Shown here piece by piece: positions 1 to 6,041 of a stretch of 6,041 nt of DNA; position 1 is the stretch's first letter; each line of letters begins with the position of its first letter. The DNA is from a virus. Taxonomy: Monodnaviria > Loebvirae > Hofneiviricota > Faserviricetes > Tubulavirales > Inoviridae. Made by a program: the position numbers and the translations under genes. Location of the stretch: the IMG/VR virus record IMGVR_UViG_2645727593_000001, positions 1 through 6,041 of that record. The stretch is one strand, 5' to 3'. Under the pieces are notes generated by a model. That model ran no database searches. It saw only the letters and a list, made by a program, of their open reading frames with translations, and had not been told where the DNA came from.

Positions 1-525
<525 letters not shown>

Positions 526-526
<1 letters not shown>

Positions 527-981
527 CAGTCGTTCTCCTGCATCAATTGTTGGTATTCAAGTGCAAAAAGCTGGGCCAGTGTACGGACTTTGCCCTCGGT
601 GATTACTCCACCAGACAACACACTCTCCGCAGCAACCAGTTGTTGAGTCTTGGCACGACGCTGCCATTGTGCTTGTATTGCCTCGAGTTGCTGTAACCGT
701 CGTTCGATGTCGGCCAGTCTGGTCTGGTAGTCAGGCTGATGTTGTGTAAGTTGGGTCAACTTCGAATGTGCTTGCATGTTTTGCCATACCGGATTGGTAC
801 CCAATGCTTTGGCTCGAATCAGTGCCAGCGCAGGCGTCGCCAGGATGTAATACTTGGCAACAGTAAGTGAGGTATGTCCCAGAATATGCGCAATTTCTTC
901 GGCGCTGCCCCCTTGCTTTAACATAATATACATTATGCGCACTGTTATCAGGACTGATGAAAACCGAAGGCCAGTCATCAC
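526..981 (-). CDS. Hypothetical protein with an HTH-like or tyrosine-recombinase-C-terminus-like segment and a coiled-coil tail; true start uncertain
   Basis: The 151-aa frame begins at GTG 981 and its codons 13-22 are encoded by the dif-like site itself. Alternative ATG starts lie inside dif at 933-931 and 924-922. 'SAEEIAHILGHTSLTVAKYY' resembles both a helix-turn-helix and the LGH...Y region of a tyrosine recombinase, and 'QTRLADIERRLQQLEAIQAQWQRRAKTQQ' is coiled-coil-like. No confident family assignment. Confidence 0.4.
916..943 (-). other. dif: dif-like XerC/XerD recombination site; putative prophage attachment junction
   Basis: Minus strand reads AGTGCGCATAA-TGTATA-TTATGTTAAAG. Compared with E. 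coli dif as I recall it (GGTGCGCATAA-TGTATA-TTATGTTAAAT) that is 26 of 28, with an identical 6-bp central region and mismatches only at the outermost base of each arm. It lies ~260 bp beyond the stop of the last phage gene. Confidence 0.8.
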
Positions 982-1202
982 CAGAATTGCTGTAACCCAT
1001 CAATTTCATCAACTGGCCACATCAATGCATGGACGACTCACGCCTTGCGTCGTTCGTCTCGATAGCTGCCCTTTAAAAGCGGCCTGGCAGGAAGCGCGTT
1101 GCGCTGTCTCCTGCTGCTCTGTAATTTCTCCCTGGCTTCGGCGGTCAGGCAGCTGCATCACATGAAACATCATCATGCCGCCTTACATGCCGCGTTGCGG
1201 CA

Positions 1203-3517
<2,315 letters not shown>

Positions 3518-3528
3518 AAATCACCCTC

Positions 3529-3819
<291 letters not shown>

Positions 3820-3833
3820 TCACCACCTGATTA

Positions 3834-5483
<1,650 letters not shown>

Positions 5484-5487
5484 TTCA

Positions 5488-5658
5488 TCACCAGTAAAAA
5501 CTAAATGGTTTTACAATTCGACGGAAATCCTGATCGGCTTTTTCAAGGATAACTGAAACAACATATTCTTCAATGGTTGCATTTTTATTGTAAATAATTC
5601 TTTCTATCTGCTCGATAGTGTATTCCGGCAATTTAACTTTAAATTCTTGAGTAGACAT
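5488..5658 (-). CDS. Small hypothetical protein (56 aa) between the major coat gene and pIII; possible accessory (moron) gene
   Basis: Hand translation from ATG 5658-5656 to TGA 5490-5488 gives [62 protein letters not shown] Shine-Dalgarno about 4 nt upstream. The stop lies 4 nt before the pIII ATG. It is absent from the supplied ORF track, presumably for length. The protein is hydrophilic and charged, not coat-protein-like. Confidence 0.5.
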
Positions 5659-5750
5659 AAAACCTCACAAATTAGATTTAAACCCAATGACGCAACATAA
5701 CCCACAAAGGGAACCAAACATCATAAAAATAAAATCAAACATAAATATCC

Positions 5751-5777
5751 AAAAAAAGGGCGGAATATCCGCCCTTC
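5751..5777 (-). terminator. Rho-independent terminator downstream of the major coat protein gene
   Basis: On the minus strand a GC-rich stem GGGCGGA / TCCGCCC (7 bp, extendable to 9 with AA/TT) with loop TAT is followed by TTTTTTT. It begins about 16 nt after the pVIII stop. Ff phages have a strong terminator at the equivalent position. Confidence 0.75.
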
Positions 5778-5792
5778 CTCATAAAAAACAAC

Positions 5793-6041
5793 TCAGATAC
5801 TTCTGATGGCTCCCCATACTTTACGAACGCCAGCAAAAGTCAGATAAACTGTAACTCCTGCAACACCGATAGAAAGAATAACAGCAGAAACAGAAGACAT
5901 ATCAATGCTGTTAGTCAATGATGAAAAATCGACTGTACCAGCAAAAGACGGAGATACAGCAAGAGCAGAAGCAGCGGAAAAAGATAAAGCTGCAACTTTC
6001 TTATCAACACCCTTAAAAAAATTGGTCATTTTTGCAAACAT
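5793..6041 (-). CDS. pVIII-like major coat protein precursor
   Basis: 82 aa. Signal-like N-terminus ending 'ALAVSPSFA', then a mature region with an acidic/polar N-terminus, a hydrophobic core 'VSAVILSIGVAGVTVYLTFAG', and a basic C-terminus 'VRKVWGAIRSI', the typical inovirus major coat architecture. Followed by a terminator. The start codon is at the window edge. Confidence 0.8.
   Translation of the reverse strand: MFAKMTNFFKGVDKKVAALSFSAASALAVSPSFAGTVDFSSLTNSIDMSSVSAVILSIGVAGVTVYLTFAGVRKVWGAIRSI

Follow-up and report, generated by a model that had tools for sequence, protein, structure and literature searches.

A conserved small gene at the coat-adsorption protein junction of Escherichia coli filamentous prophages is predicted to encode a ribbon-helix-helix protein

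To our knowledge, the Ff phages encode nothing between gene VIII and gene III, and in inoviruses outside the Ff group the majority of genes have no assigned function. The locus considered here raises the question of what a small open reading frame is doing at exactly this junction. The window, meaning the whole stretch of 6,041 nucleotides that was analysed, carries on its minus strand the morphogenesis half of an E. coli filamentous (inovirus) prophage, and a hydrophilic ORF of 56 codons, referred to below as g56, separates its major coat gene from its pIII-like gene (Table 1). Chromosomal prophages at least 99% identical to window positions 917–6041 are present in 27 of 5,426 complete E. coli genomes, and the majority of carriers of these E. 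coli filamentous prophages are isolates from humans.

Table 1. Positions in the window of g56, its signals and the surrounding morphogenesis genes
Feature	Position	Strand	Basis
Major coat protein gene, pVIII-like, 82 aa	5793..6041	-	phrog_2186 virion structural protein, E=2.9e-14; weak Pfam Phage_Coat_B match
pVIII intrinsic terminator	5749..5780	-	Fold and inverted repeat I2; kept in both clades
25-aa hydrophobic ORF, MFDFIFMMFGSLCGLCCVIGFKSNL	5665..5742	-	ORF; clade B counterpart; pS versus pN
Shine-Dalgarno GAGG of g56	5663..5666	-	Sequence; 4 nt 5′ of the ATG
g56, 56-aa ORF, hydrophilic, predicted ribbon-helix-helix fold	5488..5658	-	
pIII-like adsorption/minor coat gene, 549 aa	3834..5483	-	phrog_7187 and phrog_3942 matches on the C-terminal domain
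pVI-like gene (DUF2523), downstream in the same gene string	3529..3816	-	Pfam DUF2523, 2.9e-9; phrog_974
pI/Zot assembly ATPase gene	2459..3517	-	Pfam Zot, 1.3e-22
pIV secretin gene	1203..2462	-	Pfam Secretin, 1.9e-25

The outline of the gene given in the original prediction holds up well. The ORF is present on the minus strand with an ATG start and lies, as claimed, downstream of the pVIII terminator, which has a GC-rich 9-bp stem and a T-run and is found after the coat gene; the GAGG of Table 1 bears out the good Shine-Dalgarno sequence. The frame was said to end 4 nt before pIII, and the TGA stop is indeed followed by 4 nt (TGAA) and then by the pIII ATG at 5483. The product had been described as hydrophilic and unlike a virion or membrane protein, consistent with its GRAVY of -0.34, its pI of 5.3 and the lack of any hydrophobic segment, and its hydrophilic sequence rules out both of these classes. 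Proteins of the pVII/pIX type are very small with a single dominant membrane-spanning segment, a description that the product of the 25-aa ORF fits and that of g56 does not. A point to be corrected is that the ORF was called unannotated, since RefSeq has it in most carriers as the hypothetical protein WP_000107046.1. In a few genomes it is intact yet uncalled by RefSeq, and a literature search for WP_000107046 returned no mentions. The Shine-Dalgarno sequence overlaps the TGA stop (5665–5667) of the 25-aa ORF, and this region is kept as GTGAGG in clade A, formed by the window and its close relatives, and as GTGAGT in clade B, formed by other E. coli inovirus contigs. The pIII ATG of clade B has no good Shine-Dalgarno sequence 5′ of the start.

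Several lines of evidence establish that g56 is a real, conserved and lineage-restricted gene. Only 0.8% of composition-matched shuffles leave its frame open, the other two frames contain many stops, and the frame is kept in every copy examined among the close relatives in clade A, where the single indel of the region lies in the T-run of the terminator. In clade B, where frame and start are likewise kept, the gene encodes 58–64 aa with about 46% identity to clade A and occupies the same site, 3′ of the terminator and the 25-aa ORF and directly 5′ of the pIII ATG, with a gap of 4 nt to pIII where the junction was read. Between the clades 25 of 35 synonymous sites differ, which is saturation, compared with 47 of 133 non-synonymous sites, so that dN/dS is about 0.2 (Fisher p=2e-4). 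Disruption of the frame among relatives, or the absence of a synonymous-site pattern, had been named as grounds for dismissing the gene; both comparisons came out in its favour, and the selection pattern and the shuffle test rule out a chance ORF. In indexed public assemblies the five commonest intact variants occur in 700, 157, 139, 93 and 56 contigs, and only two disrupted (frameshifted) variants, P0003 and P0004, were found, in one contig each.

Relatives of g56 fall into these two clades only, both in a word-indexed search of 5.8 billion proteins and in an exhaustive phmmer search of 1.84 billion representatives, and all named sources are E. coli or Enterobacteriaceae. A eukaryotic repeat protein (P0006) returned by the exhaustive search was a spurious match. 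No g56 relatives were found in a GTDB scan with one genome per species, and a phage database searched at the DNA level contained no close relative of the morphogenesis module. The nearest deposited inoviruses, D_HF5_61 and Dulem virus 52 (39% Zot identity), agree with a lineage-specific gene in that their coat gene is followed directly by pIII, and the intervening gaps of 51 and 83 nt contain no g56-like ORF. As a single sequence g56 has no significant match in Pfam, PHROGs, NCBIfam or PADLOC. The family is new at the sequence level and unnamed in Pfam and PHROGs; its predicted fold is of a known kind, and the place of the gene is unusual for one of that kind.

The DNA between the terminator and g56 is itself largely coding. 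The terminator hairpin spans 5756–5776, with a 9-bp stem (AAGGGCGGA/TCCGCCCTT), a 3-nt loop and seven T, as found by RNA folding and an inverted-repeat search; that a simple terminator scan missed it is a quirk of the tool. The A/T-rich spacer at 5660–5750 had been regarded as free DNA in which a promoter might be mapped, and turns out to be occupied by the conserved hydrophobic 25-aa ORF (GRAVY +1.5), whose clade B counterpart at the same place reads MWEFIFMMYGSLCGLCCVMGFKSNM. Comparison of the clades gives a pS of 0.73 and a pN of 0.14 for this ORF (p=6e-5), and it is without annotation in the RefSeq records inspected. Its product is likely a small inner-membrane protein or a pVII/pIX-like minor protein, and may be a PfsE-like membrane peptide. 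In both clades the 25-aa ORF and g56 are in one frame, with a TGA and two codons between them (window 5656–5667; locus L023, 136–147). That read-through of this TGA might give an 84-aa, membrane-anchored fusion of the two products is pure speculation.

The suggestion of a promoter in the spacer was not borne out, as scans of the coding strand from the terminator to g56, and on to pIII, gave no sigma-70-like site in either clade; expression is therefore probably due to read-through of the terminator or to a non-canonical promoter. Promoter-like hexamers, TTTACA and AAGAAT separated by 18 nt and with 9 of 12 matches, occur within g56 at 5565–5594 on the minus strand and might serve pIII. Such sites are no more numerous in this region than in shuffles, and the scan of a clade B locus reported none on its coding strand. 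Repeat searches covering the local region and the whole phage revealed no operator-like conserved repeat. The sole palindrome, at 5671–5688, is imperfect, is confined to clade A and is mutated at synonymous sites within that clade. A scan of the whole window against Rfam found no RNA families.

Structure prediction indicates that the g56 product very probably takes the ribbon-helix-helix (beta-alpha-alpha) fold of the DNA-binding domains of Arc, CopG, Mnt and type II antitoxins. The AF2 model, a single-chain prediction built from a 22-sequence alignment (19 sequences of clade B and three of clade A), has a pLDDT of 83.6 and consists of an extended N-terminus with a strand at about residues 4–10, helix A at 12–22, a turn N26-x-T28, helix B at 29–49 and a conserved tail at 42–56. 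The model thus shows the beta-alpha-alpha topology, with an alternating strand and two packed helices, by which this fold is recognized. A model made without an alignment is poor (pLDDT 63), and a Foldseek search of the PDB with it gave no matches. Among the top 50 Foldseek matches in BFVD, eleven named proteins are of ribbon-helix-helix type (CopG-like, RHH, HicB, NikA, DUF1778, repressor) and no other functional names occur. The closest structural neighbours are the antitoxins TacA1, ParD, RelB, MazE6 and KacA.

Profile comparisons yield sub-threshold matches to the same superfamily. In a profile search of the PDB, Arc (E 0.43–0.71) and KacA (E 0.73) rank among the top 3–5 of 177,635 sequences, both sub-threshold, with alignments spanning the strand through helix B of g56. 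The PHROG 'Arc-like repressor' matched 19 of 19 clade B sequences and 0 of 3 clade A sequences, again below threshold (best E 0.0056). A direct hhalign comparison of g56 with Arc gave a probability of 6%, and no curated ribbon-helix-helix profile in Pfam or NCBIfam scored below E=0.1. The profile and structure searches that had been recommended therefore divide, with structure pointing to a ribbon-helix-helix protein and the curated profiles of Pfam and NCBIfam giving no match.

Conservation along the predicted fold is uneven. Identical residues between clades A and B number 3 of 11 in the strand, 5 of 11 in helix A, 2 of 6 in the inter-helix turn (N26 and T28) and 5 of 13 in helix B, and the C-terminal tail (D-x-DFR-x-IVKPFSF) is the best conserved part, with 11 of 15. 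Nineteen residues are invariant. N26 and T28 are located exactly between the helices and are invariant in the 22-sequence alignment, and N26S variants occur within clade A. The 16 protein variants of clade A differ mostly at helix positions, and their strand and tail are almost invariant. In clade B the ends are variable after PFSFDF and fall at a G-run in the DNA, a coincidence that suggests frameshifting there. The pattern of substitutions points to a recognition surface that is diverging, while the tail attached to it stays conserved for partner binding or oligomerisation.

The genomic context of g56 places a further constraint on its role. The original prediction treated the ORF as possible cargo inserted at a module boundary; it is instead a fixed member of the morphogenesis module that co-diverges with the N-terminal region of pIII. 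The module has the order 57-aa ORF, pVIII, 25-aa ORF, g56, pIII, pVI, pI, pIV and a region after pIV, and shows 83–98% DNA identity over aligned parts among phages of three replication/lysogeny modules. These comprise a Rep_trans initiator with a 70-aa divergent ORF (locus L001), a 667-aa 'replication endonuclease' accompanied by an IS110-family transposase, and a third, distinct Rep of 411 aa whose module includes an XRE-like repressor candidate. Because g56 is joined to three unrelated Rep/regulator modules, it is neither a lysogeny repressor nor a Rep accessory factor, for which linkage to the replication/immunity module would be expected, and any DNA target of its product therefore lies in the morphogenesis module or in the host. 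A Xer-activating or excision factor is likewise rejected, as g56 occurs also in the backbone with the IS110-family transposase.

Within the module, divergence between the clades is concentrated around g56. The proteins pVI, pI and pIV are 96–98% identical (dS 0.13–0.27), whereas a block at about 4040–5760 on the minus strand, made up of g56, the N-terminal two thirds of pIII (about 4040–5483) and, to a lesser degree, the 25-aa ORF, has 52–81% DNA identity per 100-nt window compared with 87–100% in the rest of the module. In this block dS is saturated for g56 and 1.2 for pIII. The C-terminal domain of pIII is conserved between the clades, and its N-domain forms two E. coli protein clusters only, at 100% and 63% identity. 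The region after gIV, which is common to all backbones, has 81–82% identity between the clades as against 93% for gI–gIV. Over shorter distances, between the window and locus L002, no unique sequence is more diverged than g56 together with the stretch upstream. Here g56 differs at 8 of 171 nt, 7 of the changes being non-synonymous but conservative, compared with 0–1 differences in gI and gIV; the short-term pattern in pVIII is similar, with 0 synonymous and 3 non-synonymous changes.

Taken with the predicted fold, these features lead us to propose, tentatively, that g56 may well encode a dimeric ribbon-helix-helix DNA-binding regulator, probably an autoregulator, of the distal morphogenesis gene string. 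A regulator, an anti-defence factor and a superinfection-exclusion protein were among the roles originally listed; regulation is the best supported because the predicted fold is ribbon-helix-helix, and anti-defence has neither a PADLOC match nor other evidence in its favour. In the proposed mechanism g56 would be translated in series with the 25-aa ORF and pIII, at stop-to-start distances of 6 nt and 4 nt, to yield a small cytoplasmic protein. By analogy with the superfamily, the homodimer would insert its paired N-terminal strands, with E5, K7 and K9 facing outward, into the DNA major groove, and the N26-x-T28 turn would cap helix B against the DNA backbone. The bound protein could (auto)regulate transcription of the 25-aa ORF, g56, gIII, gVI, gI and gIV and so hold the toxic membrane proteins pIII, pI and pIV low, and the tail DFRxIVKPFSF might make dimer-dimer contacts or bind a conserved partner. 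Arc-type autoregulators sit near the head of their operons, as in the Arc/Mnt and CopG operons, and g56 comes close to this, with a single short ORF between it and the start of the gene string after the terminator. Against this, the lack of a sigma-70-like site between the terminator and g56 leaves no obvious promoter for g56 to regulate, and the slightly acidic character of the protein counts against DNA binding. The tail is also better conserved than the putative DNA-reading strand, which suits a protein-binding role at least as well.

A protein-binding tail would be central to an alternative in which g56 encodes an adaptor for assembly or packaging. The ribbon-helix-helix-like domain would bind a double-stranded hairpin of the phage ssDNA, for example the packaging signal or the region after gIV, and the tail would dock on the cytoplasmic domain of pI/Zot or on the 25-aa peptide. 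The constancy of the morphogenesis module whatever the replication module, the conservation of the tail alongside near-identical pI, pVI and pIV, the in-frame arrangement with the 25-aa ORF in both clades and the region after gIV, present in all backbones and more diverged between the clades than gI–gIV, are each consistent with such a function. We nevertheless judge it unlikely, since the nearest inoviruses lack g56, so that assembly machinery of this type can work without it, and since the fusion to the 25-aa peptide is speculative. In addition, we know of no inovirus that uses a soluble DNA-binding adaptor, and assembly in Ff begins with the membrane proteins pVII, pIX and pI. The shared divergence of g56 and the N-terminal two thirds of pIII points in another direction, to a host-directed factor for superinfection exclusion or receptor down-regulation that represses or binds the host function used for entry through the cognate pIII N-domain receptor. 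Inheritance of the two as a single cassette would then be accounted for, and the idea draws on the depth of the diverged block, with dS above 1, on the predominance of non-synonymous changes in g56 between the window and L002, and on the precedent that filamentous phages encode small exclusion proteins such as PfsE of Pf4. The co-divergence may, however, reflect recombination breakpoints only, the non-synonymous excess is drawn from 8 substitutions, with a similar pattern in pVIII, PADLOC gives no match, and the exclusion factors known from inoviruses are either pIII or membrane peptides rather than cytoplasmic ribbon-helix-helix proteins, so that this function too seems improbable. A wider version, also doubtful in our estimation, is that the 25-aa peptide, the ribbon-helix-helix protein and the receptor-binding part of pIII constitute a single exchangeable 'entry/exclusion' cassette, in which the ribbon-helix-helix protein, alone or anchored by the peptide, would determine either superinfection immunity specific to the phage type or how the assembly operon is controlled. 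If true, such a regulator would be of a type so far undescribed within the structural operon of an inovirus.

Two further explanations appear far less probable. The g56 peptide could be a leader without a function of its own that simply delivers ribosomes to the pIII start, as might be supposed from the 4-nt stop-to-start distance kept in both clades, the poor Shine-Dalgarno sequence of clade B pIII and the mostly non-synonymous changes within clade A. A foldable beta-alpha-alpha pattern, 19 invariant residues and a dN/dS of about 0.2 after synonymous saturation make this very hard to sustain. It is similarly most improbable that g56 belongs to a toxin-antitoxin pair as its ribbon-helix-helix antitoxin, the toxin being the 25-aa hydrophobic peptide or the product of another neighbour. 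The closest structural neighbours are indeed antitoxins, a ribbon-helix-helix domain followed by a conserved C-terminal tail is an antitoxin architecture, and a gene for a small hydrophobic peptide is located directly upstream. But the neighbours of g56 are the 25-aa ORF and pIII, neither with a toxin domain, and there are no matches to PADLOC or to toxin-antitoxin families; it differs in this from TacA/KacA (DUF1778), ParD/PrpA and RelB, as pIII is the next gene and no toxin is adjacent. The toxins of type II systems, moreover, are soluble enzymes, and it is antisense RNA that normally controls membrane-peptide toxins.

Comparison with known regulators shows where the proposed DNA-binding regulator is conventional and where it departs from precedent. 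At about 50 aa the g56 product resembles Arc and Mnt of phage P22 and CopG of pMV158, ribbon-helix-helix repressors of 45–83 aa, and like theirs its gene is near the head of a gene string. It shares with Arc the strand-helix-turn-helix order, an alignment in register from the strand through helix B, and a strand of alternating hydrophobic and polar residues that runs into a proline (FKVKLP in g56, FNLRWP in Arc). The g56 product differs from these repressors in its lack of significant sequence similarity, its slight acidity and its extra conserved 15-residue aromatic tail, and our search found no operator or promoter for it. The location is also different, an inovirus structural/assembly operon rather than an immunity or copy-control region. 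A filamentous-phage example is ORF13 of the Pseudomonas phage PMBT54, an omega-like ribbon-helix-helix protein with database similarity to omega, which the paper takes up following the genes for assembly and egress and for which it considers a possible role in episome maintenance or copy control (PMC10534721). As far as its description allows comparison, ORF13 is like g56 a filamentous-phage ribbon-helix-helix protein with a proposed regulatory or maintenance role (PMC10534721), whereas g56 is placed at the junction of pVIII and pIII, and no sequence relatives of it can be detected beyond its own lineage. Both this phage and Ff (M13/fd/f1) have a strong intrinsic terminator after the coat gene and, beyond it, the genes gIII, gVI, gI and gIV, which are expressed at a low level. 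The present phage differs in adding two conserved genes, of 25 and 56 aa, at the VIII–III junction and in having no recognisable sigma-70 promoter after its terminator.

An Arc-like protein encoded in a structural operon and inherited with the receptor-binding half of pIII is a concrete and cheap hypothesis. It bears either on how an assembly operon with the toxic products pIII, pI and pIV is regulated without the Ff arrangement, or on phage-type-specific exclusion. The gain for annotation is small but real, in that 'hypothetical proteins' of the WP_000107046 type become putative ribbon-helix-helix proteins, and the conserved 25-aa gene upstream of g56 is one that annotation currently misses.

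Several observations concern the surroundings of the module. The left flank of the window (1–942) is 100% identical to EPEC E2348/69, in which the phage is absent at that place, and its junction with the phage was seen in no complete genome of the collection. This flank contains the first 133 codons of an ORF with a reverse-transcriptase domain (Pfam RVT_1, 8e-11) and the C-terminal part of a tyrosine-recombinase-like ORF (526–981, minus strand). At 914–941 the prophage ends at what we take to be an E. coli dif site, near-perfect in sequence and reading GTGCGCATAATGTATATTATGTTAAA on the minus strand. In its free form the L001 phage has two inverted dif-like arms (15883–15898 and 15967–15982) on either side of a hairpin, an arrangement resembling CTXphi-type XerCD-dependent integration. 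Loci L001 (8001–21125), L002 (1840–10250) and L024 hold the same morphogenesis module with differing replication/lysogeny modules, and the chromosomal insertion sites differ, one being next to a LysR-family gene and another between ybiB and hcxB. The L001 prophage is a tandem duplication with a period of 7,952 bp. The 70-aa divergent ORF of its Rep_trans backbone (15182–15394, plus strand; phrog_2503, unknown function; TTVRINENRKLELKRRVLEIGNKTGELLKPSEIVNHLIDNYL) resembles by eye a strand-helix-helix protein, and was rejected as a g56 paralogue at an hhalign probability of 0.1%. Finally, pIII contains an 18-nt tandem repeat encoding (GTGSGT)n at about 4133–4496 on the minus strand (L001, 11217–11580), the copy number of which varies by strain, and pIII ranges from 537 to 569 aa across loci.
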